A stretch of 33,493 bases of DNA from Coleofasciculus chthonoplastes F2-STO-03. Its GTDB lineage: Bacteria > Cyanobacteriota > Cyanobacteriia > Cyanobacteriales > Coleofasciculaceae. Below, one piece after another: positions 1 to 28,500 of the stretch. Position numbers and translations under genes: made by a program. The notes under the pieces were generated by a model. That model did not search any database. It was not told the origin of the DNA and saw only the letters and a list, made by a program, of their open reading frames with translations. Location: contig JAVJWO010000194.1 of assembly GCA_040222015.1 (NCBI GenBank), positions 1 to 33,493 on the forward strand. Reading direction: 5' to 3'. Each line of letters opens with the position of its first letter. Within the stretch, counting starts at the first letter, position 1.

Positions 1-1
1 G

Positions 2-2704
2 CAGAATCACGTAGAGAATGCTGAAGCGGTTTTAACTGAGGTCTTGGATTGGACAGGAGGACAACCGTTTCTGACTCAAAAATTATGTTCTCTCATTGTT
101 CAAGAATGGGATACAATGGGTCAGGAATTCTATCCCGACAATCCATCGGCGGCTAATGAGATTGAGCTGTTAGTGCAACAGTGTATTATCGAAAACTGGG
201 AAGCCTGGGATGAACCAGAGCATTTGAGAACAATCCGCGATCGCATTCTGGCAAATGAACAGCGTGCAGGTAGATTACTGGGACTCTATCAGCATATTTT
301 ACAGCAGGGACAAATCCCCACAGACGAGAGTCCGGAACAAGTCGAATTACGACTGACAGGGTTGGTGGTGAAACGGCAAGGAAATTTAAAGGTTTATAAT
401 CCCATTTATGCCGGGATTTTTAACCATCGTTGGGTGGAGCAAGAATTAGCCAATCTGCGACCCTATAGTCAGGGAATTACTGCCTGGGAGGAATCGAACT
501 GTCAAGATCAATCACGGCTGTTGCAGGGACAGGCATTGCAAGAAGCCTTGGCGTGGGCAACTAATAAAAGTTTAAGCGATCGCGATTATCACTTTTTAGC
601 GGCTAGCCAAGAATTGGATAAACGAATGGCTTTGGAGTTAGAGAGAAAGCAAAAGGAGGCAGTCGAACAGGCAAATCAGATATTGGTTGAGGCGACACAT
701 AAAGCCCAACGCACGATTCGCATGGGCTTGGGCATCCTGTTCGTCTCGTTATTTGGCGCAGGAGTTGCAGGAATCGTCGTCAACTTAGTCATTAGAGAAC
801 TAAAACAGACGATGGAAAGTACTCGACTCGAACGGGTCAGTTTTCAAGCTTTGCAACGGTTTGAAAGTAGGGGTGACGAAATCGAAGGGTTACTTTTTGC
901 CATGGAAGCAGGGCAAGCTTTGCAAAAGCAGGCGCAAGATAGTCGTCTCCTCCCAGAGGAACTTACCACCAGTCCCGTTGTCGCCCTACAACAAATTCTT
1001 GACAACATTCGAGAACGGAATCAAATCAAAGGGCATCAGCAAAGAATATGGCATGTCAGTTTTAGTCCGAATAGTAAGTACATGGCGACGGCTTCATCAG
1101 ATGGCACTGCCCGACTGTGGGACTTATCTGGCAATCAAAAAGCTGAATTAAAGGGACATCAGGGTTGGGTAACCCATGTCAGTTTTAGCCCCAACGGTGA
1201 ATACATCGCCACGGCTGGGGAGGATGGTACTGCCCGATTGTGGGACTTATCGGGGAAAGAGCTTGTTGAATTCCGGGGGCATCAAGGTCAAGTCTGGAGT
1301 GTCAGTTTTAGCCCCAATGGAGAATACATCGCCACGGCTGGGGAAGACGGTATTGCCCGATTGTGGGACTTATCGGGGAAACAGCTCGTTGAATTCCGGG
1401 GGCATCAAGGCAAAGTCTTGAGTGTCAGTTTTAGCCCCAATAGTGAATACATTGCCACGGCTTCGGCTGATGGTACTGCCCGATTGTGGGATTTGTCTGG
1501 GAAGCAACTCGTTGAATTTCAAGGGGGGGTTCAGGGTACAGTCTTGAGTGTCGATTTTAGCCCGAATGGTGAGTATATTGCCACTGCCCATGACGATAGC
1601 ACTACCCGGTTGTGGGACTTGTCTGGCAATCAAATCGCTGAGTTGAAAGGGCATCAGGGCTGGGTAACCAGTGTCAGTTTTAGTCCCCATGGTGAGTACC
1701 TTGCCACAGCGAGTGAGGGCGGCATTGTTCGGTTGTGGGACTTGTTTAGCCACCAAAAAGCCGAATTTAGGGGACACCAGGGCTGGCTAACCAGTGTTAG
1801 CTTTAGCCCCAATGGACAATACATGGCTACGGCTTCATCGGATGGCACTGCCCGACTGTGGGACTTGTCTGGTAATCAAAAGGCTGAATTTAAGGGACAT
1901 CAGGGTTGGGTAACCCGTATCAGTTTTAGCCCGAATGGAGAATACATTGCCACGGCTGGGGAAGACGGTACTGCCCGATTGTGGGATTTATCGGGCAAGC
2001 AAAAAGCCGAATTTAAAGGACATCAGGACTGGTTAACCGATGTTAGCTTTAGCCCAAATGGGCAATACATGGCTACGGCTTCATCAGATGGTACTGCCCG
2101 ACTGTGGGACTTATCGGGCAAGCAAAAAGCCGAATTCAAAGGGCATCAAGGCTGGGTAACCAGTGTCAGTTTTAGCCCGAATGAGCCGTATATCGCCACG
2201 GCTGGTGAGGATGGCACAGTTCGATTCTGGCACTTATCGGGGAACCCGCTAACGGGATTTAAAGGGCATCAAGACTGGATAACGAATGTCAGCTTTAGCC
2301 CCACTGGAGAATACATCGCCACGGCTAGTCATGATGGTACTGCCCGATTATGGGATTTATCTGGCAACCTGCTTGCGGAATTTAAGGGGCATCAGGGTTG
2401 GGTAAGGAGTGTGAGTTTTAGCCCCAATGAACTGTATATCGCCACGGCTGGTGAAGACGGTACTGCCCGGTTGTGGGATTTATGGGGTAACCCGCTAGCA
2501 GAATTTAAGGGGCATCAGCGTGCAGCAACTAGTGTTAGTTTTAGCCCCGACGGAAAGTACCTTGCCACTGCATCCCATGATGGTACGGCACGGATATGGC
2601 GGGTTGAAGAATTAAATGAAATGCTCTTGCGAGGCTGCAATTGGCTCAACTATTACTTTGTTACCCATCCGAAAGCCTTAGAAAAATTAGAGGTTTGCCA
2701 GTAG
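2..2704 (+). CDS. AAA_35-type ATPase (C-terminal part) + TM helix + 13 WD40 repeats; 5' end lies outside the window
   Basis: Frame is open from base 2 ([29 protein letters not shown]). [13 protein letters not shown] and [16 protein letters not shown] are shared with the ATPase at 3018. Hydrophobic segment MGLGILFVSLFGAGVAGIVVNLVI is followed by 13 GH...WD repeats of ~41 aa. Confidence 0.9.
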   Translation, partial: QNHVENAEAVLTEVLDWTGGQPFLTQKLCSLIVQEWDTMGQEFYPDNPSAANEIELLVQQCIIENWEAWDEPEHLRTIRDRILANEQRAGRLLGLYQHILQQGQIPTDESPEQVELRLTGLVVKRQGNLKVYNPIYAGIFNHRWVEQELANLRPYSQGITAWEESNCQDQSRLLQGQALQEALAWATNKSLSDRDYHFLAASQELDKRMALELERKQKEAVEQANQILVEATHKAQRTIRMGLGILFVSLFGAGVAGIVVNLVIRELKQTMESTRLERVSFQALQRFESRGDEIEGLLFAMEAGQALQKQAQDSRLLPEELTTSPVVALQQILDNIRERNQIKGHQQRIWHVSFSPNSKYMATASSDGTARLWDLSGNQKAELKGHQGWVTHVSFSPNGEYIATAGEDGTARLWDLSGKELVEFRGHQGQVWSVSFSPNGEYIATAGEDGIARLWDLSGKQLVEFRGHQGKVLSVSFSPNSEYIATASADGTARLWDLSGKQLVEFQGGVQGTVLSVDFSPNGEYIATAHDDSTTRLWDLSGNQIAELKGHQGWVTSVSFSPHGEYLATASEGGIVRLWDLFSHQKAEFRGHQGWLTSVSFSPNGQYMATASSDGTARLWDLSGNQKAEFKGHQGWVTRISFSPNGEYIATAGEDGTARLWDLSGKQKAEFKGHQDWLTDVSFSPNGQYMATASSDGTARLWDLSGKQKAEFKGHQGWVTSVSFSPNEPYIATAGEDGTVRFWHLSGNPLTGFKGHQDWITNVSFSPTGEYIATASHDGTARLWDLSGNLLAEFKGHQGWVRSVSFSPNELYIATAGEDGTARLWDLWGNPLAEFKGHQRAATSVSFSPDGKYLATASHDGTARIWRVEELNEMLLRGCNWLNYYFVTHPKALEKLEVCQ

Positions 2705-2786
2705 CCGTTCAACTTTGTTCGCCCCGTTCGATAAAACGAGCCACTTTCTCATTTATTGCCTAGGAAATTTAACTATAATTTATGTC

Positions 2787-2831
2787 ATGTCAGAGACGAA
2801 CTATTACAAGGTAGGAGGAAGTTTAGAATAC
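2787..2831 (+). pseudogene. Relic 5' end of an AAA_35-family gene (MSETNYYKVGGSLEY)
   Basis: ATG at 2787. YKVGGSL is identical to the N-terminus of the 3018 protein ([10 protein letters not shown]), and similarity is lost after ~15 codons. Confidence 0.6.
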
Positions 2832-3017
2832 AGGATGCCTACACAAACAAATCCCTTGGGAAACCATGCTTCAACAAAGTTATTATGGATTTATCGAGGA
2901 TTTACCAAAGAATACTCGAAGTTTGCTCCCCCAGCTTGCCATAGTGCCATGGCACGTCTGAAACATGCTTCCCCTGCATCCTACCCCACAACAAGACTTA
3001 TTCAGTAAACCTAAACC

Positions 3018-6000
3018 ATGTATGAATATAAAGTCGGTGGGAGTCTCCCAGCTGATGCTCCCACCTATGTCTGGCGACAAGCCGATCGCGCTCTCTATAC
3101 AGCCTTAAAAGCGGGACTCTTTTGTTATGTCCTGAATTCCCGACAGATGGGCAAATCCAGCTTGCGAGTCCAAACCATGACGCGACTCCAGTCGGAAGGA
3201 ATTGCCTGTGCTGCGATTGATTTAACCGAAATTATTAGTCCCGATATTACGCCGAGTGAATTTTATGGCAGTATTACCTATACTCTAGCTGATAGTTTTC
3301 ATCTCCTGGAGAAAATTGGCGACTTTGATAGCTGGTGGAGCAACTATGAAACCCTATCCAGTACCCAGGGATTAGTGCGATTTATTAAAGATGTCCTTCT
3401 CAAACATCAATCGCTTTTGGGAAAAAAATTAATTATCTTTGTCGATGAAGTAGACAGTGTTCTACGTTTACCTTTTTCCGTGAATGACTTTTTTGGTTTA
3501 ATTCGCGCTTGTCACAATAATCGCGCGGATCAACCGGAATATAACCGCCTCACCTTTGCGATTTTAGGCGTGGCGTCGCCAACGGATTTAATTCGTTCCC
3601 AAGCCTATACTCTTCCGTTCAACTGTGGAGAAGCGATTGAATTAACGGGTTTTCGCTTAGAGGAAGCTGAACCCATTACCACCGGGTTAACCGTTAAATC
3701 CGCCAATTCCCAGGAACTGATGAAAGCGTTACTCAGTTGGACACAGGGACAACCGTTCCTGACGCAGAAACTCTGCAAGCTGATTGTCGAAGCTGAGGAT
3801 GCACCGCCGCTGGGTCAAGAATCCCACTGGGTTGAGCAACTGGTGCGATCGCGCATTTTGGAAAACTGGGAAAGCCACGATGAACCCGAACATTTACGCA
3901 CCATTCGCGATCGCTTACTCCGAAATGAACAACGCAGTCGTTCCCTGTTAAAACTTTACCAAAAAATCCTATCTTCGTCTCATTCCTATGCCATTAATGG
4001 GATATCAGACTTTGGCACTTCCCCAAATCGATACGGAGAAATTATTGATGATGATAGTCCTGAACAAATGGAACTACGATTATCGGGATTAGTAGTCAAA
4101 CAAGGGAGTATTTTAAACGTTCACAATCGCATTTATCGGTCAGTTTTTAACCCCAGTTGGGTAAAAAAACATCTAGCCGCTTTAGAACCTGAACCTCAGT
4201 ATTCCCAATTTCAGAAAACTCTAGCTGAAATGGAGCGAAAACTGTTAGTCTCTCAACTAGCTTGTGTTGCTGATGGTAGAGATTCGGCGCAGGCGCTGTA
4301 TGAGGTGTTGCGAGACGTAACCTTACGCATTGGTGATTTACTCAGCGCTGATCGAGCGACCATCTTTTTACTCAATGAAGAGAAAACGGAACTTTGGTCA
4401 GTCGTGGCTGAGAATGAAGGGAGTGAATTTCTGGATATTCAGGTACGATTAGGGGAAGGAATTGCGGGTCAAGTGGCAAAAACTCGAAAATCCATTAATA
4501 TTCGCTCGAATGTTTACCAAGATGCGCGGTCTGAATTGGTTAAAGCCTATGACGAAAAATACAATTATTATACCTATAATGTCTTGGCGTTGCCAATTAC
4601 CAATGAAAATCAGCAAGTTATTGCTGTCATTCAATTACTCAACAAATTAAAGCGACCCAAAAACTCCGATAATCAGGGACATTGGTTAATCAATCGCCAC
4701 GGTTTTAGTCAACGTGATCAAAAGCAATTAGCAGAATTTGTTCCAGCAATTTGCCGAATTCTGGAAAGCTGTCAATCCTGTTATCGTGCCACAAAGAAAC
4801 TGCGAGCAACCGCTGCTTTAGCCGAAGCCACTCGTTCCCTAGATAAAAGTAGTTTAGACATTCAAGAAATCCTGCCACGAGTCATGGATGCGGCGAAGAA
4901 ACTGATGAATGCTGACCGCAGTACCTTATGGCTTTTGGATCGCGATCGCCGTGATTTGTGGACTAAAATTCCCCAAGCTGATGGTTCCTTAACCCAAATG
5001 CGAGTCCCTGTCGGTGTAGGATTTGTAGGTAAGGTGGCGAAAACGGGTCAACCTCTGAATATTCCTTTTGATCTGTATGATCATCCCGATGCGACGAATT
5101 CGCGCAAATTTGACCGCACCACGGGTTATCGCACCTGTAGCTTGCTCTGTATGCCTGTTTTTAACGCCGATGGTGAATTAATTGGCGTGACGCAATTGGT
5201 TAATAAACGCAAGTCGAGACCTTTCCCCGCTTATAAACCTGAAAATTGGCCCCAACCGCCTGAACAATTTAAAGCCAGTTTTGATGAGCATGACTGCCAG
5301 TCTATGCAAGTGTTTAATGAGCGAGTGGGTGTGATTTTGCAATATGCCAAGACTCATGAAACCTTAAAGCAGTTTACCCAAATTCAACCCAAAGAAGGGG
5401 TTCACAATACCCTGGTGATGCTAAATCAAGCCGTGGGCAATCGTAGTGATGAAGTGATGCATAACATGCTAAATTTTATTGCCAAATCAGTGACCAAGAC
5501 CCTGGATACTGAACAGACTACGATTTTTGTCTTGAATAGCGAAAACCAAGCGTTTTGGTCATTAATTGTTGATAATGAAACGGGGAAATTAAGAGAAGTT
5601 CAGCTTGCTGCTGATGGAAGCGAGTTAGCCTCTATCTCTAAACCAATGCGACATCGAATTAGTCAGAACCATCCCAGCCTCTCGACGTTAATTCAAACCG
5701 CTACTCCTCAGTTTAAGGATTATCTGATTCACAGTCATTTAGTCTATCCTATCGTCAATTCGCAGCAGACTGTAGTAGCACTGATTGAATTAATTAATAA
5801 ACTCAAACCTACTAGCGATCGCGGCGCACCATTATCTGAACGCATTGACCCTCAAGGGTTTAGGAAAGACGACGAAAAGCACCTGGCTCAATCTGTCCCT
5901 TCAATTCTGCCGATTCTGGAAGGCGTACAATCCTTTTATCGAGAAATGCGGATCATTCAGGGACGCCAAGCGATCGATGCATTATGGTTAGCAATTAGTT

Positions 6001-6563
6001 CAATTAGTCAAGGGAATTGGACCTCTCAGGAAATTCTGCAAAAAGTCATGGATGCAGCGCAAACGTTGACCAATGCTGATCGCAGTATCCTGTGGCTAGT
6101 TGATCGCCAACGAGGTGATTTATGGACTGAACTTCCCGGTGTTGGCGAAATTCGCTGTGAAATTGGTATGGGTTTTGCGGGTCAAGTGGCAGCATCTAGT
6201 AAGCTAATGATGATTCCCTATGACTTGTATGACCATGATGGCGCATTACACGCCAAACAAATGGATTTAGAAACCGGATATCGCACCTATAGTTTACTCT
6301 GTATGCCTGTTTTAAGTCGCGATGGGGAGTTATTGGGGGTGACACAGTTACTCAACAAGCGCAAACGGGGGACTTTTTCCCAGGATCAATCTGCTGATTG
6401 TCTGGAAGTTCCTGATTATTTTAAGACAAGTTTTAATGAACGCGATCGACGATATATGGAGATATTCAATAATCAAGTCGCTGTGATTGTTCAAAGCAAT
6501 CAACAGCAGGATGTATTAAAAAGTGAAATTTTGGGTAGGCTGTCTAAAGCGTCAGTCGAGTAA
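3018..6563 (+). CDS. AAA_35-type ATPase fused to four GAF domains (two CyaB2-like GAF-A/GAF-B pairs)
   Basis: Walker A-like NSRQMGKSS and Walker B IIFVDEVD. Four NK...F...D GAF motifs: LNKLK..GFSQRD, VNKRK..SFDEHD, INKLK..GFRKDD, LNKRK..SFNERD. Confidence 0.9.
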
Positions 6564-6681: not shown

Positions 6682-6810
6682 TAACGGAACAACAAAACCC
6701 GCCCTCCCCACCATTAACGGAACAACAAAACCCGCCCTCCCCACCATTAACGGAACAACAAAACCCGCCCTCCTCACCGATAATGGAACAACAAAACCCG
6801 CCCTAGCTCA
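6682..6810. repeat. 33-bp tandem repeat x4 (TAACGGAACAACAAAACCCGCCCTCCCCACCAT)
   Basis: Units start at 6682, 6715, 6748 and 6781. Each contains AAACCCGCCC, complementary to the GGGGCGGGTTT arm at 6645-6655. Confidence 0.9.
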
Positions 6811-17508: not shown

Positions 17509-19029
17509 CTAGAGGTCAAGGTCATGGCTAAGGGGGTGTTTGTTTAGGTTGACATCTCCTCTCCTTAAAAGAGAGAGGATTCTGAGCTGATGTGAAGCGA
17601 CAGCTTGAAAGACTGTCGCTTCACATTTCTCACGATATGATCGTTTCAAATTAGTAAACAGGTCATATCGTTTTGGCAGTGTCAAACTGCCTCTACCCAC
17701 CTTGGCTAGGTTTACCCCTAGCTGTGTGGCTACTTTTCGGATTATGTTGGCTGCACCGTTGCAGTCAGCATTAATTAGCTGACCGTCAGATGTTCTATAC
17801 AACCCGCGTTTCACTCTTGTACCTGATGGTGTCCATCCTTCGGGTTTTTCACCGTATTTCGGTAATGAATCACCATCCAAGAATGATGCTTGACTTGTAT
17901 AAGCTTCCTCGGTCAAGGTCAATACAATCCCATATTCTCCTGCAAGCTGCTTGAGGCGTTCAATTAACCTCCCCGTGGGAATGGGCATGAAGTTTTGGTT
18001 CCCCCGTTTACCCATCTGGGGACTGTTTTTTTGTCCCTCATTCCAGCCAATAACCAGATTACCGATCCCGTCAGCCAAGCATCGGTTAACGATGAATCGT
18101 GCCGCTTTGTTAATGGCATCTCGCACCTTCTTATTTCGCTTGCATTGCACTCGGTCTAAATTGGTATCCCAGTAAAATTCGGACTTGCCATGCTTATACT
18201 TAGTAACCAAGCGGCAATACCCCTGATTCATTGACTTAAGCTTGCGCCCATCAACAATTAGACTTTTCCCTTGGGTTGATACTCCGGTTAACCAATTGGT
18301 GCCACCGTGGTCAAACCCCCAGGCTTGAGAGTAATCCAGATTGGGATTAAACTTAATGAGTTTCTTTCCATCATCTATTACCCAGTCAATCCAAAGTTCA
18401 CCAAGATAAGGGCGAATCGCCACTTCCTTTACCCAATCTGAATCAATGAACTCCGGCAATGGTAACTCAACACCTCGGCTCCGCTCGGTGTTGACGCTGA
18501 GCGGAGTCGAAGCGTCAATCTGAGTGATTAATTCAGGCTTGGATTCTTTACTAATGGATGGGCGAAAACATCCGTCTTTGTAAGTTAAAGCCTGCCTAGG
18601 AAAAGTCACCGCCGCCAAGCAACCTTTTTTTCTGTACTTAGGCAATGATGGACGATTAACATTTCCCTGATAATAGGCGTCAACCAAGCTGTTATAACTC
18701 TTAATTGATTCCCCTACAGACTTCAGCGTTTGCTGTGCAGATTGAGCGGCTAGCGCCTTATAATGTGGATTAAGCTTGAGCTGCCTGTCTAGCTCTGGGT
18801 AAGTCGTGCGACACCTGTAAAGCTTCCAGCCACACCGAAACTCATCGCCGAGCCAATAAAAAGCCAGAGCGTTGGGCTGTTTTTCCCTCCACTGATAATG
18901 ACTCTGCCTGGTGTGATAAATTGCACAATTAATTAGACTATTGGCATTTTGACATTGATCTATCCAGTACGCTTTTTCTTCATCCGTAAACTTAGCTTTA
19001 ATCGGGATAGTTCGATACAGTTTAATCAC
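17509..19029 (-). CDS. tnpB: TnpB RNA-guided endonuclease (IS200/IS605 family)
   Basis: AQSAQQTL, PKYRKKG, RuvC-I GFDHG, IGWNEG, EEAYTSQASFLD and RuvC-III NADCNGAANI. Confidence 0.92.
   Translation of the reverse strand: MIKLYRTIPIKAKFTDEEKAYWIDQCQNANSLINCAIYHTRQSHYQWREKQPNALAFYWLGDEFRCGWKLYRCRTTYPELDRQLKLNPHYKALAAQSAQQTLKSVGESIKSYNSLVDAYYQGNVNRPSLPKYRKKGCLAAVTFPRQALTYKDGCFRPSISKESKPELITQIDASTPLSVNTERSRGVELPLPEFIDSDWVKEVAIRPYLGELWIDWVIDDGKKLIKFNPNLDYSQAWGFDHGGTNWLTGVSTQGKSLIVDGRKLKSMNQGYCRLVTKYKHGKSEFYWDTNLDRVQCKRNKKVRDAINKAARFIVNRCLADGIGNLVIGWNEGQKNSPQMGKRGNQNFMPIPTGRLIERLKQLAGEYGIVLTLTEEAYTSQASFLDGDSLPKYGEKPEGWTPSGTRVKRGLYRTSDGQLINADCNGAANIIRKVATQLGVNLAKVGRGSLTLPKRYDLFTNLKRSYREKCEATVFQAVASHQLRILSLLRRGDVNLNKHPLSHDLDL
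17530..17720 (-). ncRNA. Putative TnpB omegaRNA (reRNA) scaffold plus flanking guide; 5' limit approximate
   Basis: Perfect 13-bp stem TGTGAAGCGACAG/CTGTCGCTTCACA (17591-17625) and the right-end hairpin. TnpB guide RNAs are known to derive from the right end plus the adjacent flank. Confidence 0.55.
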
Positions 19030-20831: not shown

Positions 20832-22103
20832 CTACTTGGGTTCTCGAATGGAACCCATGAATAAAATTGTTCCCGTTTGATTATCGCGAATTGCACAGAA
20901 AAAGGGACGATCAACCACCATCTCGAAGGGGGTTTGGGGAATAGCCGCAGAGGTGAGAACCATGCCAATAGAAGTCGCTGCTGCGGCTTCTGTGCCTTCT
21001 TCATTCACTTCGACAAAGGTTTTATGTTTGACTTGATTAATTAAGACATCTTCTTCCGTCATATTAGAAAAATCAGCCCGATCATCAAAAGCAACGTCCA
21101 TTCCTAGAGCTTTTAGGGCTTTGTTGAGTTGAATCTCGTACTCCAATTTAAAGCGCGGTAGTACGATTGAGCCATCCCGTTTACCGAACCGATTCATCCA
21201 TTGTTGCCATTTTTCTGGAGTGAGTTGCTGCTCAAATGTATCTAGACTTATATTTTCACGGGGGAGGAAGATATAGAAACTTAGACGTCCTTTACCGTAA
21301 GGTAAGCTGATGGCTTGTACGCTGTCATCTTCATAATATTGATACTCTCCCAATTGAGACATCATCGGGTGTTTTTTCTGAGTCCCATCGACTAAATAAA
21401 AGGGACGCTCTACTGTTTTATCTTTGTCGAATTGCTCCATCCAGTTGCCTTTAAAATAGATGGCATTGATTAAAAAGAGAATATCATTGGGTTGGATTTC
21501 GCTAATAATTTGCGGTATTTTGCCGTTAGTATTTTCCTTAACCCAGTTATTGATGACACGTTTAGCTTCAGGGTTAGCAAAGTCTAGATTGGTTACTTGA
21601 GTATCATAGAATTCCTGATTGCGTCGCAGGAAATCGGGTTTAAATGAAATGTCTTGTTTTGCCCAAAGTGAGTTGGCGATGGAAAGCTGAATATCAGAGT
21701 CGGCGTTTTCTAAGGTAGTTTTTAAGGCTTCATTTGCCTGGTTAACCTCTGACAGACTCATCCCTTGAAGTTCTAGTGCATTTGCCATAGCCGCTTGGGT
21801 TTCACCGCTTGCACCATTGTACGTCATGGCTAGCGCGATCGCGATGCTGGTTGGGGAGATAAAAACGTTATTATTGCTATTTTCCTGAAGAATCTCAGAA
21901 AATAATTTAAATCCAAATTTGGTATTGGCTTCAACGAGTTTGGTATTCACAGACGGGTTGGGTTGCTGTTCGGTTAACTCTGGCTTTTGAGGGTTTGGGG
22001 AGTTTTGGGCATTGATTTTTTGGCTGATTAATCCTGCCATAAATCCGGCAAAAATGATACATGCGGCGATAATCCCAGTGCGACGGAGTGTCTTTTGATT
22101 CAT
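20832..22103 (-). CDS. Serpin with an N-terminal signal/anchor; predicted inhibitory
   Basis: NVFISPTSI, NAIYFKGNW, LPRFK, hinge EEGTEAAAAT, DRPFF and ILFMG. Confidence 0.96.
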   Translation of the reverse strand: MNQKTLRRTGIIAACIIFAGFMAGLISQKINAQNSPNPQKPELTEQQPNPSVNTKLVEANTKFGFKLFSEILQENSNNNVFISPTSIAIALAMTYNGASGETQAAMANALELQGMSLSEVNQANEALKTTLENADSDIQLSIANSLWAKQDISFKPDFLRRNQEFYDTQVTNLDFANPEAKRVINNWVKENTNGKIPQIISEIQPNDILFLINAIYFKGNWMEQFDKDKTVERPFYLVDGTQKKHPMMSQLGEYQYYEDDSVQAISLPYGKGRLSFYIFLPRENISLDTFEQQLTPEKWQQWMNRFGKRDGSIVLPRFKLEYEIQLNKALKALGMDVAFDDRADFSNMTEEDVLINQVKHKTFVEVNEEGTEAAAATSIGMVLTSAAIPQTPFEMVVDRPFFCAIRDNQTGTILFMGSIREPK

Positions 22104-22250
22104 TAGTATACCTCGATAACCCCTGTTCTGTTTAAGGATGACCGATTTGGGTTAGAGGTGTTCCACAGGTTACTGTTTTGGTAACGAATCAGCAGGTGAT
22201 CAGTATGTGTAGGGGCGACCCGCCTAGCAAAATTATACCAAATCTGTCTT

Positions 22251-22369
22251 TATTACCCCTTTTGAAGAGGCGATTGTATTATCCGTTTTTGAGGCGGCGA
22301 TTGTATTACCCCTTTTTGAGGCGGCGATTGAAATCGCTGCTACACAAACAAAGTCCGCCTGCGCGGACT
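22251..22369. repeat. ~27-bp tandem repeat x3 running into a palindromic dispersed repeat
   Basis: TATTACCCCTTTTTGAGGCGGCGATTG-like units at 22251, 22277 and 22304, then GCGATTGAAATCGC and AGTCCGCCTGCGCGGACT hairpins. Confidence 0.8.
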
Positions 22370-22461
22370 TGGTGATAACGGGGGTAGCTAACCCGGATTT
22401 AGTATTAACAATGGGAATCCGCTCAATTTGCTTGGACTGCTCTATATTCTCAACCCTAATG

Positions 22462-22521
22462 TCACAAAGCGATTGCATGGCTGATATTTTTATCCAAGTG
22501 GAACCGAATTGTTTACGCCAT
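22462..22521 (-). pseudogene. Remnant of a DUF5615 (PIN-like) toxin gene
   Basis: ATG GCG TAA ACA ATT CGG TTC CAC TTG GAT AAA AAT ATC... = MA*TIRFHLDKNISHAIAL*. It overlaps the DUF433 3' end and resembles the IRFHLDEN start of DUF5615 toxins. Confidence 0.7.
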
Positions 22522-22825
22522 TTCGATTCCTTAATTTCTGCTGAACTAAAGAAGATGTTTTTGCCTGTAATTGTTGAGCAAAAGCTTTATCCTCTCGAAT
22601 TTGCTGTCTAATTTCTTCTCGATGATCGTGATAATATGCTAAGGCAGCGTACACATCAGCTAAGGTGATAGTTGGATAGTGTGAGATGATTTCATCGGGT
22701 GAAATTCCAATTTGTTCATGCCAGATCACCACATCCTGCACTTTAATCCGATGTCCAGCAATGCGTGGTTTACCGCCACATACACCGGGAGTCATTTCTA
22801 TATGTTCTGATATTACTGATTCCAT
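22490..22825 (-). CDS. DUF433 antitoxin-like protein
   Basis: PGVCGGKPRIAGHRIKV...YPTITLADVYAALAYY; ATG at 22825. Confidence 0.92.
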   Translation of the reverse strand: MESVISEHIEMTPGVCGGKPRIAGHRIKVQDVVIWHEQIGISPDEIISHYPTITLADVYAALAYYHDHREEIRQQIREDKAFAQQLQAKTSSLVQQKLRNRNGVNNSVPLG

Positions 22826-22909
22826 CTGTATTTTCAGCAACAAACAAGGTGCATAGCTTCAAATCGTAGCAAAAACAGAGTCGAGCAGGAGAGTGCGATC
22901 GCGTGACAA

Positions 22910-25900
22910 TTATAACAACGGCTTCAGCGTTTCCGGGTCAGCGATACCGCGTAGGATAGCATTGATGATTGCAGCGTCTTCCCCACCTAACTTCTCACAC
23001 AGTATATTCTCATCTCGCTCACCATTAAATATCCGATTGATAGCAAACACTAAATTACCCCCACCGCGTCTCGCTATTTCTTCTAGCCCAGGTTTTAGTT
23101 CTTTGTTCACTTCCTCTTTATCCACTGTAGCAACTACCTCTGCAATTAACTGCCTATATTTCTCCAACAAATACTGCGTCTCTACTCTTGCTATCGCTTC
23201 CCGTGACAAGTGACGATATTCTTGTGCTTGAGTGGTTTCATTTTGTTTGTCGGCGATATTCGCTAAGATGGTGTATGTTTTCCAAACCTCAGCAGAAGCA
23301 GGGTCTAAAGTTTTGCTAATTGCTAATGCCTCTTCTGCTAATTGATGCGCCTCTTGAAGGCGGTTAGATTGATTTTGTAGTAAATCAGCAAGATTATTCA
23401 GGACAATAAATATATCTTTCTTGCTTCCTAATTTTCTGTAAGTATTAAGTGCCTTACGATACCAAGATTCTGCATTCTCAGTTTTCCCAGCATACTTATT
23501 GAGTATTGCTAGTTGATTCCAAGTATCTGCTGCACCTGCGATATCGCCTTGATTTTCTTTGATTTGTGCTGATTCACGATAAGCTTGTTCAGCTTCATCC
23601 CACTGGTTTAGTGTTTCATAAACTCTACCCAGTTGATGCCAAGCGGCAGCTTCCATTGCTGGTTCATTCAGTTGTCGAAAAGTTTTCACGGCTTGATGAC
23701 AGCGTTGTTCGGCTTCTGGTATTTTCCCTAATAGCAAGGCAACTGTGCGGAGTTGTGCTTCAACTATAGCTATCTGACGAGCATCTTTTTGCTCTTTGGC
23801 AACAGTTAATGCAACTTCATAAGCAATGTGTGCTTGATCGTAACGGTGTATCTGGTAAAAAGCATCTGCCAACTCAGACTGCAAAATCCCTATCTGTCGT
23901 TTTACACCTTCAGATTCTTCTAATTGGTTGGCTACTTCCAATCCTTGGTGATACAGTTTCACCCCTTTTGATGCTTTACCTTGATGCGTTAAGCATCGTC
24001 CCACACGACCTAGTGCTACACAAAGTTCATAGCTAGGATGATCGCCCAATCCTACCACTATCTCACTAAAAACTTGCTCGGCTTGTTGGTATTGACCTTT
24101 CCTATACAATTCTTCACCCAAGTTTATTTTTTTGGGAAGCCATGTTTGAGAACCTACTTGTTCTCCCATCTTTATCGCTACTTGACTTAATGCCTCTCGA
24201 TCACGGTTCAGTCCGAAATGATAGAGGAATTTATTTACACAATCAACAAATTCTGCTGCCCATTCTTCCCCTACATCCAATGCTCCCCGAACCGCATACA
24301 TCAAGTTAGGCAATTCTTTTTGAGTAAGGGTACGGATATGCTGGGGATTCCGTATATCTTTCTGATATAAATAGTCTGATACTTTATAATAACGCTGTCG
24401 ATGACGGGCAAGCAATTTAGCTTGTGCCACTGGTGAAAGTTGTGACCAAAGGGTTAGGCTTAAAGTGGGGTGAAACTTGAGATAAGGTACAGCAAAACCA
24501 GGCATAATTTCTGGCTGAATCAAGCCAGTAGCTTCCAATGCAGGACGTAGCTTTTGCCACTGTTCCTGGGAAAATTCAGCAATAATCACCAAATTAGATT
24601 CCAAAGCCCCACCCTGAAACACCCCCAACCGAGGTAACAACTGCTGCGCCTCATCATCCAACCGTTCCAGCGATAAATTTAACGACGCCAACAAAGGATT
24701 ATCTGGGGTTTGGGCAACCAACGCCTCCAACCGTTCCCCTAATTCTGCCGGACGACGCATTTTCAACTGCCTCGCCAACAACCCAATCGACAAGGGATGA
24801 AAATCGACTAACTTAAACAATCTTTCCAACACTTCCCGTTGCGGCAGGTCAAATTGGGGTGCTGGAGGAAACTCCATCAACTTCTGGAAATATGCCAGCG
24901 CATCTTCTTGTGCTAACCCACCCAATGGTAACGACCGATGTCTCAAACTCCCCTCAGTGGCATAATCAGGATGGTGAAAATCTAGCATCCGAGTCGTCAG
25001 TAACACCCGACAATCCCCCACCTCAGACCAGTCTTTCGCTACATCCAATAACTCTCGCAACGGCTGCGGCTGCAAGCTTTCCAAGTTATCCAAAATCACC
25101 AACGTCGGCGTTTCCTGCAATGCCTGATTTGCCGCCAACTTATCCACCAAACTCTTACCCAACACCGTCGCCAGGGTACTCACCGCCCACCCCACCGCAT
25201 CCACACCCTGAAATGCCGCATAATCGACAAAACACACCCTCTCAAACATTCCAGTGCGGTGCAACCAGCGCCCTGCTTCCTCAACTAAAAAGGTCTTCCC
25301 CTGTCCGCCAAAACCCGATATAGTAATGCGGCGCGTCCCCTGTACAAACCACCGTTCAATCTGCCACAATTCATGACTGCGACCAAAAAATCCCGCTTCC
25401 TGTAATGGGCGGATATTGCTCCAGATTGACCCCTGCCCCCTTCCGTCGCTCTTCAGAGGGGCTGGAGGAGTTAAGTCCCTCAAAAATGGTGTATCCTTCC
25501 CCGCCTGATACAGTGCGGGTAGAAACCAATCCTGTAATTTCAGTGTTATCCGCTTGTCTCCCCGTTGCCGTTCCCCTCGTTCTCGGTTTAAATACAAATC
25601 CCGCCGCGCATTATCCAACGCCTCGCCTATTCCTTCCCCCGATACCAGACGCCGATAAAATGTGGCAAACAACTGACGGGTAGTTCTCACCAATACCGAA
25701 TGCGTCATCGCCAAAACTGCTGGAATCCCCCCATGGGTTAACCTTGCCGCCACACACCCCATCGCATCGTCTTTATCCTCACCCCCCATCGCCGCTGACT
25801 GACAGGCAGATAGGACAATTAACCCTACCTTTTGACGATTGAGCATATCCGCCAAGGTTTCAGCACTAATCAGCGCTTGTTTTCCGTCTTTATCCTCAAA

Positions 25901-26716
25901 TAACAGATATCCCGTATTACTATCATCTCCATTCCCCCCTTTCGTCGGTGCGACTGAGTTATTCAATTTTGCCCGTTCTCGCCACCGCCCATCGGAGTCA
26001 AACACACCATGCCCATCAAAATGTACGATATCGATAGGCGGTTTATGTCGGTCTTCTAACCGTGCCACCAAATTATCTAAGGTTGCTGGACGCAGAAACT
26101 CCACCTCAACTCGTCCGGCTGCTTCTTGGTCAATCGCATCCAATACCGCCTGCGCTTCTCCGTATGGGTCAATGAATGCAGCATCGCTGGGACGACTCAC
26201 GATAAACAGCAAGCGCAATTTATCTTTTACCTGTACCTTAAACGGTTTCCGTCCACCCCCTGCACCTGCCAAACGGCGACGAATAGAAATCCGAGGATTG
26301 TCATGAACTAAATACGTGCCGTCGGGGTCGCGCAATAGTTCCCAAGGTAGGGATAAAATGGCGGGATGACTGGCAGTAATTGTTAGCAACCGTCCGGATT
26401 CATCCTCATCCTGGAACGCATTAAACAGTCGCTGGGCATGGCGGTTAACGAAAACAGCGTTAAATAAATCTGCGCCCCATTTGTGTAATTTTGCCTCAAT
26501 TCCCTTTGCCGTTTTATCATCCACGTCTGTGGTATATCGGCTGCCGTAGATTTCTAAATACCACTGGATGTCTTTTAGGTCTTCTTGACTCAGGGGTGAG
26601 ACAAAATCAAGTGTGTCAGTTTCGTTATCGTCAAATGTGACAATCACTTGATTAATTTTGGGAAAGCGCAGATTTAACTCCACTGTCACTGGGAATATCC
26701 TGAAGTTGGCGATCAA
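22910..26716 (-). CDS. CHAT (caspase-like) protease + STAND/NB-ARC-like NTPase + TPR protein; start may be GTG 26689
   Basis: LPWELL, VHFDGHG and VLSACQS (His/Cys dyad), Walker A GFGGQGKT, Walker B LVILDNLES, FHPLSI (GxP-like), and TPR units such as AAAWHQLGRVY and ADTWNQLAIL. Confidence 0.92.
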   Translation of the reverse strand: MIANFRIFPVTVELNLRFPKINQVIVTFDDNETDTLDFVSPLSQEDLKDIQWYLEIYGSRYTTDVDDKTAKGIEAKLHKWGADLFNAVFVNRHAQRLFNAFQDEDESGRLLTITASHPAILSLPWELLRDPDGTYLVHDNPRISIRRRLAGAGGGRKPFKVQVKDKLRLLFIVSRPSDAAFIDPYGEAQAVLDAIDQEAAGRVEVEFLRPATLDNLVARLEDRHKPPIDIVHFDGHGVFDSDGRWRERAKLNNSVAPTKGGNGDDSNTGYLLFEDKDGKQALISAETLADMLNRQKVGLIVLSACQSAAMGGEDKDDAMGCVAARLTHGGIPAVLAMTHSVLVRTTRQLFATFYRRLVSGEGIGEALDNARRDLYLNRERGERQRGDKRITLKLQDWFLPALYQAGKDTPFLRDLTPPAPLKSDGRGQGSIWSNIRPLQEAGFFGRSHELWQIERWFVQGTRRITISGFGGQGKTFLVEEAGRWLHRTGMFERVCFVDYAAFQGVDAVGWAVSTLATVLGKSLVDKLAANQALQETPTLVILDNLESLQPQPLRELLDVAKDWSEVGDCRVLLTTRMLDFHHPDYATEGSLRHRSLPLGGLAQEDALAYFQKLMEFPPAPQFDLPQREVLERLFKLVDFHPLSIGLLARQLKMRRPAELGERLEALVAQTPDNPLLASLNLSLERLDDEAQQLLPRLGVFQGGALESNLVIIAEFSQEQWQKLRPALEATGLIQPEIMPGFAVPYLKFHPTLSLTLWSQLSPVAQAKLLARHRQRYYKVSDYLYQKDIRNPQHIRTLTQKELPNLMYAVRGALDVGEEWAAEFVDCVNKFLYHFGLNRDREALSQVAIKMGEQVGSQTWLPKKINLGEELYRKGQYQQAEQVFSEIVVGLGDHPSYELCVALGRVGRCLTHQGKASKGVKLYHQGLEVANQLEESEGVKRQIGILQSELADAFYQIHRYDQAHIAYEVALTVAKEQKDARQIAIVEAQLRTVALLLGKIPEAEQRCHQAVKTFRQLNEPAMEAAAWHQLGRVYETLNQWDEAEQAYRESAQIKENQGDIAGAADTWNQLAILNKYAGKTENAESWYRKALNTYRKLGSKKDIFIVLNNLADLLQNQSNRLQEAHQLAEEALAISKTLDPASAEVWKTYTILANIADKQNETTQAQEYRHLSREAIARVETQYLLEKYRQLIAEVVATVDKEEVNKELKPGLEEIARRGGGNLVFAINRIFNGERDENILCEKLGGEDAAIINAILRGIADPETLKPLL

Positions 26717-26793
26717 TTTGATTGGATAGTTCCGCCGTTTTTTCGGGTGTAAAAATGGTAGTCATACTGGGTTTATTTCTCAATTGAAACCTT

Positions 26794-26854
26794 GGGGCGG
26801 GTTTATTCCCATCTGGGTGAGGGCATCAAAGATAGTCGTGAAACCCGCCCCTAC
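26794..26854. repeat. REP-like pair GGGGCGGGTTT...AAACCCGCCCCTAC
   Basis: 11-bp inverted repeat; same family at 6645-6706, ~11316-11379 and 29836-29891. Confidence 0.8.
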
Positions 26855-26895
26855 AGATACGCTATGCCTATCTAGCAATAGCGTTGGGCTAAAAT

Positions 26896-28500
26896 TTATC
26901 TGTCCGGTACTGTCCACCAGGCTAAGCCGTAGGGTTGGGATTCTTCATTTTCCTGTTGGCGATATTGAACCCGGATTTTATAGCGACCTGAAGCGGGAAC
27001 GGGACAGAATATATGTTCCACACTATCCACTTCACTTACAGAAGCGCAGGCACTTTTACGGGTATCATTTTCATCAAGAGGTATCAAATAAAGGTCGAGA
27101 TTATTCAAACCGCGATCGCGAAAATTTTCGCCGACATCATACACCTCATTTCCATTCTCATCTTTTAGCTCAACTAAGCGATCCCACGCTAGCGTCAACG
27201 CCACATAACTGTCTGCCTTTAAGGGTTTTTCTAAGACATAATCCTGAAACGATTTAGTCTTAACTGAACTATAATCCCAACCCACAGGCGGTACAGCCCC
27301 CGTTGAACTCCACTGACCGGGACTAAATTGTTGATAAGCCCGGAAAACATTCAGGTGTCCGGTTCCCGTTTGTATATCGAGGGGAATTTTGGCATCAAGA
27401 TAAGCATCCGATTCTAACCAGGTGTAATTATCTTTGCTCAACAGGGTGCGGTTCATTCCTAGATGCAACCCATCCCCCTCGTCTTGGATTTTGTCAGCGG
27501 AGTTAAGTAACACCGCTTTCATCACTTCATGGCGTCTAGCATCGGTAGTCCATTGGGGTTGATTGGCGTTGAGTTGGCGATCGCCAAATTCTTGAATTAG
27601 GGCGACTGAGGCGGTAATATGAGGCGCGGCGAAACTGGTCCCACTCACTTCGACAATTTTTCCATCCAGGTCGTAGACTAAAATACGACTTCCTGGTGCG
27701 ACTAAATTAATCGCACGGCGAGTTCCCTGGTTAATTTCCCGTTGAATTAAACGCCGACCAATTCCCTCTGGCAGATCACTCAAGTTGGCAAAGTCTACCT
27801 TGGCAAATTGTCCTTGCCTTTGGGTGGTATAGGCAGTGGTAATCCCGTTATAGTGATCGGTGGGAATGGGAATGCCACCTTTGCCTTGGTTGCCTGCAAT
27901 GACGTAGAGAACATCATGAGTCCGGGCTGACCAATCGATACATTTTGTTAACAGGGCATTGCCATCGAGCGCCGCTTGTGATCCTCTGGCATCTCGTTGC
28001 AGGGATTCACCAAAACTGAAGTTAATTGCCCGCACATCACCACTATTTTGCAGAGCAACATGCTGGGAGGACAGGCATTCTTCCGGCTGTCCACTGCGGA
28101 TTGGGGAACCGACAGCCGAAGCGTAGAGTCTGGCTCCTGGTGCGACTCCGGGTAAGGTTTTATCTTTACTCACCATAACCCCCGCCACCATTGCTGCATG
28201 GGTATCCACATCCGTATCGGCTTTCGCGGGTCGATCGCGATAAAAAACCCGCTCAAGTGCGATCGCGGGATTCCAAGATACGGCTTTATCAACGCCAAAT
28301 AAGCCCGGTCTACCGATTTCCACCTGACCAATGGCTATTTTATGCCCTCTCAAGTGGTAGGGGGAAGCATGGAGTCGCAACGCATCAATTCCGGCTTCTC
28401 CAATGGAAATTGGTGACGCTAAGATTGGGGTGGTCAGGGTAGAGAGTCCCACACCTCCAATCATCCATCCCAGTTTTTTGATCAGCGACCGCATAGCCAA
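26896..28500 (-). CDS. Secreted S8 subtilase, Glu-His-Ser type
   Basis: Signal-like N-terminus, IGQVEIG (Glu at the catalytic Asp position), DTHAAMVAG, AGN oxyanion motif, SGTSFAAPH. Confidence 0.88.
   Translation of the reverse strand: MAMRSLIKKLGWMIGGVGLSTLTTPILASPISIGEAGIDALRLHASPYHLRGHKIAIGQVEIGRPGLFGVDKAVSWNPAIALERVFYRDRPAKADTDVDTHAAMVAGVMVSKDKTLPGVAPGARLYASAVGSPIRSGQPEECLSSQHVALQNSGDVRAINFSFGESLQRDARGSQAALDGNALLTKCIDWSARTHDVLYVIAGNQGKGGIPIPTDHYNGITTAYTTQRQGQFAKVDFANLSDLPEGIGRRLIQREINQGTRRAINLVAPGSRILVYDLDGKIVEVSGTSFAAPHITASVALIQEFGDRQLNANQPQWTTDARRHEVMKAVLLNSADKIQDEGDGLHLGMNRTLLSKDNYTWLESDAYLDAKIPLDIQTGTGHLNVFRAYQQFSPGQWSSTGAVPPVGWDYSSVKTKSFQDYVLEKPLKADSYVALTLAWDRLVELKDENGNEVYDVGENFRDRGLNNLDLYLIPLDENDTRKSACASVSEVDSVEHIFCPVPASGRYKIRVQYRQQENEESQPYGLAWWTVPDR

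Follow-up and report, generated by a model that had tools for sequence, protein, structure and literature searches.

What does a cyanobacterial ATPase do when it carries four GAF domains and ends without an output domain? The question is raised by a contig of 33,493 nucleotides from Coleofasciculus chthonoplastes F2-STO-03 (JAVJWO010000194.1, assembly GCA_040222015.1; positions 1 to 33,493, hereafter the window), in which an open reading frame (ORF) at positions 3018-6563 on the plus strand encodes a protein of 1181 amino acids, here called P0001. The protein consists of an AAA_35 ATPase followed by two CyaB2-type GAF-A/GAF-B tandems and ends after the fourth GAF domain. Its database label is 'GAF domain-containing protein', and no NCBIfam family scored above its cut-off. 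We found that it belongs to a real, conserved and uncharacterised system in which known parts stand in a new arrangement. Evidence for a dedicated partner ATPase, which would carry the outputs, comes from gene neighbourhoods, from trees, from co-occurrence and from a repeat in the promoter. On balance, and with little more than even confidence, we favour the reading that P0001 senses cyclic AMP (cAMP) as one half of a MalT-like STAND switch split over two proteins, and that the pair drives both transcription and cAMP synthesis.

By the features tested, P0001 is an AAA_35 STAND ATPase and not a CyaB2 cyclase. The Pfam AAA_35 model matched residues 8-259 with 97.9 bits (gathering cut-off 27), with the GAF domains behind it. 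Walker A reads RQMGKS at residues 42-47; like most of the family, P0001 has asparagine where the P-loop consensus has its first glycine. Walker B reads IFVDEVD at 140-146, and a GQP motif lies at 244-246. Residues G45, K46, D143 and E144 were invariant among 45 aligned homologues. STANDs of the MNS clade are defined by a GxP helical domain followed by a winged helix, and the modelled module (residues 2-379) aligned with the STAND ATPases 2QEN (Z 17.2, root-mean-square deviation (rmsd) 5.8, 310 residues aligned) and 2FNA (Z 16.7, rmsd 5.8, 313 aligned), the next structural neighbours being NLR resistosomes (Z 14.8-17.7). Since no transmembrane (TM) helix was predicted in P0001 (hydropathy maximum 1.32), we regard it as a soluble sensor.

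Behind the ATPase, residues 403-788 matched the tandem GAF structure of CyaB2 (1YKD) with an E-value of 3e-124, and the second tandem matched it with 1.9e-80. Compared with the CyaB2 orthologue at locus L085, GAF1 was 45% identical to GAF-A, GAF2 62% to GAF-B, GAF3 31% to GAF-A and GAF4 48% to GAF-B, identities that establish an A-B-A'-B' order. The AlphaFold model, built from the 45 homologues, contained four GAF folds joined by long connecting helices (mean pLDDT 75.6). A sequence-only reading of this DNA had described intact Walker motifs in a STAND-like AAA_35 ATPase, a CyaB2-like A-B-A'-B' array and a chain ending right after GAF4, and the analysis bore out each of these; the GAF motifs that it quoted as shared were each found twice, at the domains it had named.

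P0001 is a member of a family conserved under purifying selection and is not a truncation product. Orthologues share 90-96% identity within Coleofasciculus and 54-66% in other genera, and the gene is intact in all nine genomes of the genus. Across nine Coleofasciculus orthologues, the ratio of nonsynonymous to synonymous substitution rates (dN/dS) was 0.11 for the whole gene, with values of 0.05 for the P-loop domain and 0.25 for GAF3. Among the best 120 of 1749 homologues, 48 had the AAA_35-(GAF)4 build, 70 were a shorter form, termed gamma, that keeps the helical/winged-helix part and the GAF domains without the P-loop, and two were fragments; none carried a cyclase domain after GAF4. The same was true of the 22 AAA_35-(GAF)4 ORFs among 44 loci, all of which stop after GAF4, and of 150 cluster representatives, in which a cyclase followed only a single tandem, never two. 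An ATPase tree (53 rows, quick method; L044 unparsed, seven near-copies and four duplicates omitted) placed P0001 in an alpha clade of 21 rows (support 100), recovered a beta clade of 7 rows (support 96), and a tree of first tandems (79 rows, FastTree) nested gamma inside alpha. The Walker B aspartate and glutamate were kept in 36/36 alpha and 13/13 beta proteins. The C-terminus of P0001 lies 29 residues beyond the last GAF motif, and family tails measure 9-33 residues (35 of 36 alpha proteins parsed). The four-GAF family is patchy, because only about 10 of 251 sampled genomes of the phylum encode such a protein (4 candidates scored per genome), most other matches being CyaB2-type cyclases.

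We then compared the GAF pockets with that of CyaB2. According to excerpts of the published work (PMC4411481), GAF-B contacts cAMP through R291, T293, I308, D356 and N359; the I308A mutant has lower affinity for cAMP, and T293A for cGMP only. Residue numbering in the L085 orthologue is identical. At these five contacts GAF2 has R/T/I/D/T (R634, T636, I651, D699 and T702, with T706 and Q726) and GAF4 has R/I/L/D/T (R1022, I1024, L1039, D1083 and T1086, with T1090 and Q1110); threonine at position 359 also stands in the GAF-A of CyaB2, in 77% of 22 orthologues. In both domains the arginine and aspartate were invariant across the 45 homologues, and the named pocket residues were invariant or nearly so. 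GAF1 keeps R446, T448, V463, D512, T519 and Q539 and has Tyr515 where CyaB2 has threonine or asparagine, a tyrosine found in 86% of 36 alpha proteins. The corresponding positions of GAF3 are occupied by Q833, P897, K900, I904 and E924, and the published residue set is gone. The GAF-A contacts and positions 363 and 383 are our presumed equivalents, placed by alignment, and about 4 of the 36 alpha rows were misaligned by gaps in GAF2/GAF3, the four suspected proteins having all four domains. The glycine motif G.G..G is present in GAF1, GAF2 and GAF4 and missing from GAF3, in agreement with the earlier suspicion that this domain is non-binding. The N, K, F and D of the NKFDE motif occur in all four GAF domains and the terminal E in GAF3 only.

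This pattern indicates that cAMP very probably binds GAF2 and GAF4; GAF1 would bind cAMP differently or take another ligand, and GAF3 would act as a spacer. The beta clade shows the opposite pattern: in 13 proteins GAF1 is the decayed domain and GAF3 the intact one, from which it follows that four GAF domains are retained even when one pocket is lost. Separately, the beta2-beta3 loop of GAF2 and GAF4 (window 4950-5010 and 6120-6170) occurs in long and short forms distributed irregularly among homologues, which hints at gene conversion between copies. A regular swap of loop forms between the sensor and the P-loop-less paralogue was rejected, as loop type varies inside alpha.

The sequence-only reading had noted the lack of an output domain, which is correct for the polypeptide and misleading for the system, in which the outputs appear to lie on a partner ATPase. 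At 14 alpha loci outside Coleofasciculus obtained by protein search, the partner gene was directly upstream of the sensor in eight, one gene off in one, 4.8 kb off in one and absent from the locus in four; direct pairs share a strand, and stop and start codons often overlap. The partner has an N-terminal helix-turn-helix (HTH) domain, a paralogous AAA_35 ATPase whose Walker B has lost its glutamate and, in most cases, a class III adenylyl cyclase. The glutamate was missing in 15/15 partners, 13 of which keep six cyclase residues while two have no cyclase. Since the HTH was present in 19/19 partners and the cyclase in 14/19, transcription looks like the core output. The N-terminus, for which Pfam itself gave no match, resembles HTH_VMAP-M9 (Atlas score 0.92). 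A CyaB2-like GAF-GAF-PAS-cyclase gene lies divergently upstream at 11 of 12 partner loci outside the genus, with a 43-residue remnant at the twelfth, and these cyclases form a clade of their own (support 100). The sensor and partner ATPases are homologous over the entire module, and both types are fused in one polypeptide in 6 of the 150 representatives. One three-gene locus (L030) is labelled Actinomycetota, yet its genes nest among cyanobacterial ones; it is probably a mis-binned contig.

In F2-STO-03 the partner orthologue, P0122, is encoded on another contig (G000:C30:42433-44355). It is 61% identical over its full length to two operon-linked partners and falls inside their clade (14 rows, support 100) in a tree of 44 rows in all, 3 unparsed and 10 duplicates skipped. 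Its cyclase has all six catalytic residues (D482, K521, D525, D578, N585 and R589), which we take to be two metal-binding aspartates, a lysine/aspartate pair for adenine and an asparagine/arginine pair. The P0122 model aligned with the class III cyclase 3MR7 (Z 24.8, rmsd 2.0, 171 aligned) and with 2QEN and 2FNA (Z 20.3 and 20.1). Across 52 genomes of the family (24 candidates scored per genome), a partner orthologue was found in 12 of 13 genomes with a full-length alpha sensor and in none of the 39 others, which include one unpublished genome (G255). An apparent partner match in G258, whose sensor is of beta type, was rejected because the protein is another one and falls outside the clade of partners. 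Partner and divergent cyclase are still together in G272 and G273, where the sensor has been relocated. Taken together, these comparisons indicate that the ancestral locus held partner and then sensor in one operon with a divergent CyaB2-like cyclase, and that the operon was split in Coleofasciculus with both halves kept.

The upstream region of the partner contains a 9-bp direct repeat, its unit being AAAATTCA and one further base; the two to five copies stop 33-53 bases short of the start. The repeat abuts an extended -10-like element at 12 loci outside the genus, and at three loci within the genus a -10-like hexamer follows a few bases on. A looser second array lies further upstream. The repeat was present in 15/15 partner promoters versus 0/121 other upstream regions of AAA_35 and neighbouring genes. 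The 7.7-Mb genome of F2-STO-03 contains a single triple repeat site, before P0122, and a Markov control contained none. A matrix trained without the genus ranked the P0122 site first at 34.7 bits, the next locus in the genome reaching 21.1, and gave no clear wider regulon beyond the partner promoter. A blind pattern search of 301 genomes returned eight matches (reversed control, 0): three known loci, four new complete three-gene loci and one other. The last precedes a gene in which a related HTH, of the partner's HTH family (38% identical over 60 residues), is joined to an NB-ARC-like ATPase that is unrelated, which argues that the repeat tracks the HTH. No repeat of this kind precedes the sensor gene in the window, around which promoter and terminator scans stayed at chance level. 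A CRP box was considered for the partner and sensor promoters and rejected: 15 regions gave only two 8-of-10 matches, both overlapping the repeat. Of four metatranscriptome runs (contigs), three were covered evenly across genic and intergenic DNA alike, and the fourth had cover in 7 of 30 bins. Direct repeats of 10 or 11 bases also precede other HTH-AAA_35 paralogues (upstream of L015:8440, L016:8086 and L012:4724; also in L037, L051, L052 and, intergenic, L099, L102 and L118), which suggests a private operator for each such paralogue.

Under the split-pair reading, cAMP would occupy GAF2 and GAF4 of the sensor, move the linker between winged helix and GAF1, and signal along the helical spine, so changing nucleotide exchange or hydrolysis in the sensor and with it the assembly state of the partner. 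The two proteins are likely to assemble through their homologous ATPase modules, the active sensor ATPase setting hetero-oligomer assembly with a hydrolysis-dead partner. Assembly would array the HTH domains on the repeat, so that the operon would regulate itself and the divergent cyclase gene as well, and would bring the cyclase domains together to close a cAMP feedback loop. More broadly, and only tentatively, we envisage an NLR-like circuit in which a cAMP-reading four-GAF STAND controls assembly with a hydrolysis-dead, cAMP-making partner that binds the 9-bp operator, linking cAMP to transcription without CRP, with a TIR/phosphodiesterase-like version in beta ('make' and 'break' forms in filamentous cyanobacteria) and a private repeat operator for each HTH-AAA_35 paralogue; as a whole this scheme is a possibility on which we would not rely.

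Several observations weigh against the split-pair reading. Nine of the 13 sensor-holding genomes come from one genus, and the co-occurrence therefore does not amount to 13 independent cases; one of them (G266) has a sensor with no partner orthologue found among its 24 scored candidates. In Coleofasciculus the sensor lacks an adjacent partner at 8/8 loci, the window included, and the divergent cyclase is gone from the F2-STO-03 genome, where the best match is CyaB2 proper. Five of the 19 partners have no cyclase, the Walker B glutamate is also lost in a few unrelated paralogues, and the model leaves the domain arrangement of P0001 unfixed (pTM 0.39). Finally, the P-loop-less derivative is the commoner form among the top matches (70/120), showing that the GAF array is useful without the ATPase.

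The last point, together with the two or three intact pockets per chain, would suit a cAMP sink or buffer, in which the GAF array sequesters cAMP, the ATPase is a mere scaffold and the link to the partner is historical. The gamma form stood alone in the five loci examined, and the operon split in Coleofasciculus would fit as well. Against it stand the P-loop domain, which is the most constrained part of the protein, and the retention of the partner alongside the sensor even when the two are unlinked; the HTH-linked promoter repeat would be left unexplained. The sink, raised in the sequence-only reading as an alternative, is thus weakened, and we consider it unlikely. F2-STO-03 itself encodes a P-loop-less paralogue with the helical/winged-helix part and four GAF domains (L001:5903-8764, G000:C26), which may be a decoy or an extra sensor for P0122.

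The beta clade brings in a second alternative. In beta, the sensor gene lies behind that of an HTH-TIR-ATPase partner whose Walker B is intact, and it faces a conserved phosphodiesterase-like gene that lacks GAF domains; this arrangement was seen at 9 of the 11 loci examined. Similarity of the latter gene to class I phosphodiesterases is weak (E about 0.007, in 2 of 7 scanned). Alpha and beta both stand beside a cyclic-nucleotide turnover enzyme, which supports the ligand assignment. The TIR domains of beta have a glutamate at the presumed catalytic position in 5 of 7 cases. An NLR-like pair might be a conflict or immune module: its input would be a cyclic nucleotide induced by infection, possibly other than cAMP, and its response the firing of TIR, cyclase or HTH effectors. 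The conserved altered pocket of GAF1, the resistosome folds among the structural neighbours, the HTH_VMAP-M9 likeness and the varied N-termini of other four-GAF proteins would agree with this, and excerpts of PMC8195603 place MNS-clade STANDs in counter-invader systems. Such a module is nevertheless improbable for P0001: the gene is intact throughout the genus under purifying selection, its neighbours are signalling or housekeeping genes, the partner cyclase carries the presumed adenine-specifying pair, and the proposed autoregulation with a dedicated cAMP synthase or hydrolase fits homeostatic signalling.

The GAF array might instead be the output, pairing as a heterodimer with the tandem GAF domains of either CyaB2 or the divergent CyaB2-like cyclase and tuning that enzyme under control of the ATPase pair. 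About half of its residues are identical to the CyaB2 tandem, the 1YKD entry is titled for ligand binding and dimerisation, and the divergent cyclase is present not only at most partner loci outside the genus but also at 5/5 loci with a cyclase-less partner. Such a role is hard to reconcile with beta, in which the gene in that position has no GAF domain, with F2-STO-03, which keeps the sensor though the divergent cyclase is lost, and with the conservation of pockets and not of helices alone, and we think it a doubtful explanation. A truncated or decaying cyclase fusion is scarcely credible, since the AAA_35-GAF-GAF-PAS-cyclase fusions that are known (P0127, and P0139 with one GAF) have one tandem and not two, the stop after GAF4 is conserved under selection, and an intact CyaB2 is encoded elsewhere in the genome.

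Single-tandem AAA_35-GAF-GAF-PAS-cyclase fusions exist among the 150 representatives; P0127, P0139 (one GAF only), P0125, P0129 and P0142 join AAA_35 to a CyaB2-like GAF-GAF-PAS(-cyclase) and hold sensor, switch and enzyme in one chain. The four-GAF module also occurs behind unrelated N-termini (P0137, P0140, P0145, P0182, P0204 and P0214), which by eye are helical adaptor-like, protease-like, HTH-like or phosphoesterase-like. F2-STO-03 encodes intact CyaB2-like and CyaB1-like cyclases, together with a long-branched GAF-GAF-PAS-cyclase without the catalytic lysine and arginine (L003:4356-6713, G000:C101). Two proteins of about 330 amino acids with an HTH-like N-terminus and one CyaB2 GAF-A domain (L005:1296-2294 and L006:4088-5029) are candidate one-component cAMP-responsive regulators.

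The features of the sensor gene and the DNA before it are collected in Table 1. The sequence-only reading had equated the position of the GAF domains with that of the WD40 repeats in the upstream paralogue; this needs correction, as the paralogue has a predicted TM helix between ATPase and propeller (hydropathy 2.37), absent from P0001, and is probably a membrane receptor. It is not a conserved neighbour of the sensor outside the genus. In Coleofasciculus the sensor closes a variable array of AAA_35-WD40 paralogues and fragments (L020, L023, L025, L026, L117 and window 1-3017), likely a hot spot of recombination into which the sensor moved once the operon had been split. Downstream, a 33-bp tandem repeat of 3.7 copies (window 6682-6804) lies inside a dispersed element, of which BLAST returned 351 pieces across the genome. 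Farther along are an IS200/IS605-type TnpB-like ORF under Pfam cut-offs (17509-19029) and, near one another on the minus strand (20832-28500), genes for a serpin, a CHAT-ATPase-TPR protein (22910-26716) and a subtilase (26896-28500).

Table 1. Sensor gene, its domains and the preceding genes in the window, with the basis of each assignment.
Feature	Position	Strand	Basis
Upstream AAA_35 paralogue, incomplete at the contig edge, with helical/winged-helix part, predicted TM helix and WD40 propeller	2..2704	+	Pfam, hydropathy
Remnant start of another AAA_35 gene	2787..2831	+	84% nucleotide match to the start of a paralogue on G000:C64
AAA_35-(GAF)4 gene (P0001, alpha-clade sensor subunit)	3018..6563	+	ORF, Pfam, orthologues
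P-loop NTPase domain, residues 1-230	3018..3707	+	Pfam AAA_35; dN/dS 0.05
Walker A	3132-3161	+	Within P-loop NTPase domain
Walker B	3432-3455	+	Within P-loop NTPase domain
Helical domain and winged-helix domain, residues 231-392; GxP motif 3747-3755	3708..4193	+	Model match to STAND ATPases
Linker helix, winged helix to GAF1	4197..4274	+	Helix 394-419 in model
GAF1 (GAF-A type), modified pocket	4287..4781	+	Domain alignment; dN/dS 0.10
GAF2 (GAF-B type), best candidate cAMP site	4851..5351	+	1YKD match, pocket alignment; dN/dS 0.08
GAF3 (GAF-A type), pocket decayed, scaffold kept	5445..5936	+	Pocket alignment, motif check; dN/dS 0.25
GAF4 (GAF-B type), second candidate cAMP site	6015..6503	+	1YKD match, pocket alignment; dN/dS 0.14

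We searched the literature on AAA_35 with GAF domains and on STAND-cAMP links in cyanobacteria and found no paper on this system, in a search that mostly did not cover subscription journals; nor did the literature searched contain a characterised member of the large cyanobacterial AAA_35 family, which we take to be the same as the Npun2340/2341 family. A cyanobacterial STAND family of that name appears in excerpts of PMC8195603. These and excerpts of PMC7159879 mention MNS-clade STANDs, GAFs and cyclases in conflict systems, and do not describe the alpha pair; the supplements may list such architectures. With a ligand that can be predicted, an identified partner, two outputs open to assay and a candidate operator, P0001 makes the function of the whole paired AAA_35 family directly testable. 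If the split-pair reading is right, filamentous cyanobacteria possess a cAMP receptor beyond those of CRP type. Excerpts of PMC4284465 report that added cAMP stimulates gliding and mat formation in Spirulina; a role of the pair in motility or mats is a guess.

Among known systems, P0001 resembles CyaB2 of Anabaena PCC 7120 (1YKD; excerpts of PMC4411481) in holding the same tandem twice, with the GAF-B pocket in GAF2 and GAF4, and in its genetic link to class III cyclases. It differs in that the tandem is duplicated, with GAF3 decayed and GAF1 altered, and stands behind a STAND ATPase with no PAS or cyclase in cis, the cyclase being on the partner. With MNS-clade STANDs (AAA_35; the archaeal PabY2304, 2QEN, and SSO1545, 2FNA) it shares the P-loop, GxP helical domain and winged helix, and like the WD40 and CHASE2 paralogues of this genome it belongs to a two-gene pair of paralogous ATPases. 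Its sensor, unlike theirs, is a cytoplasmic second-messenger module, where theirs is a propeller or CHASE2 domain that follows a membrane helix, and the partner lacks the Walker B glutamate and bears an HTH and a cyclase.

Paired NLRs work by a sensor-helper logic, and paired or split NLRs and bacterial TIR/Avs STANDs recall the present pair in having a sensor ATPase and an executor ATPase, with TIR in the beta clade. Here, however, the predicted input is a nucleotide messenger and not a pathogen protein; the sensor matched none of the PADLOC 2023 profiles, and the partner gave weak PycC matches in its cyclase domain only. For few STAND/NLR switches is the small-molecule inducer known; MalT is the model. 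Escherichia coli MalT and, in excerpts of PMC5760070, mycobacterial IniR likewise combine a small-molecule sensor, a STAND ATPase and a DNA-binding domain with a narrow set of targets. In the system described here these functions would be divided between two proteins, with cAMP as the predicted ligand, an N-terminal HTH of HTH_VMAP-M9 type in place of a LuxR domain, and an added enzyme output.

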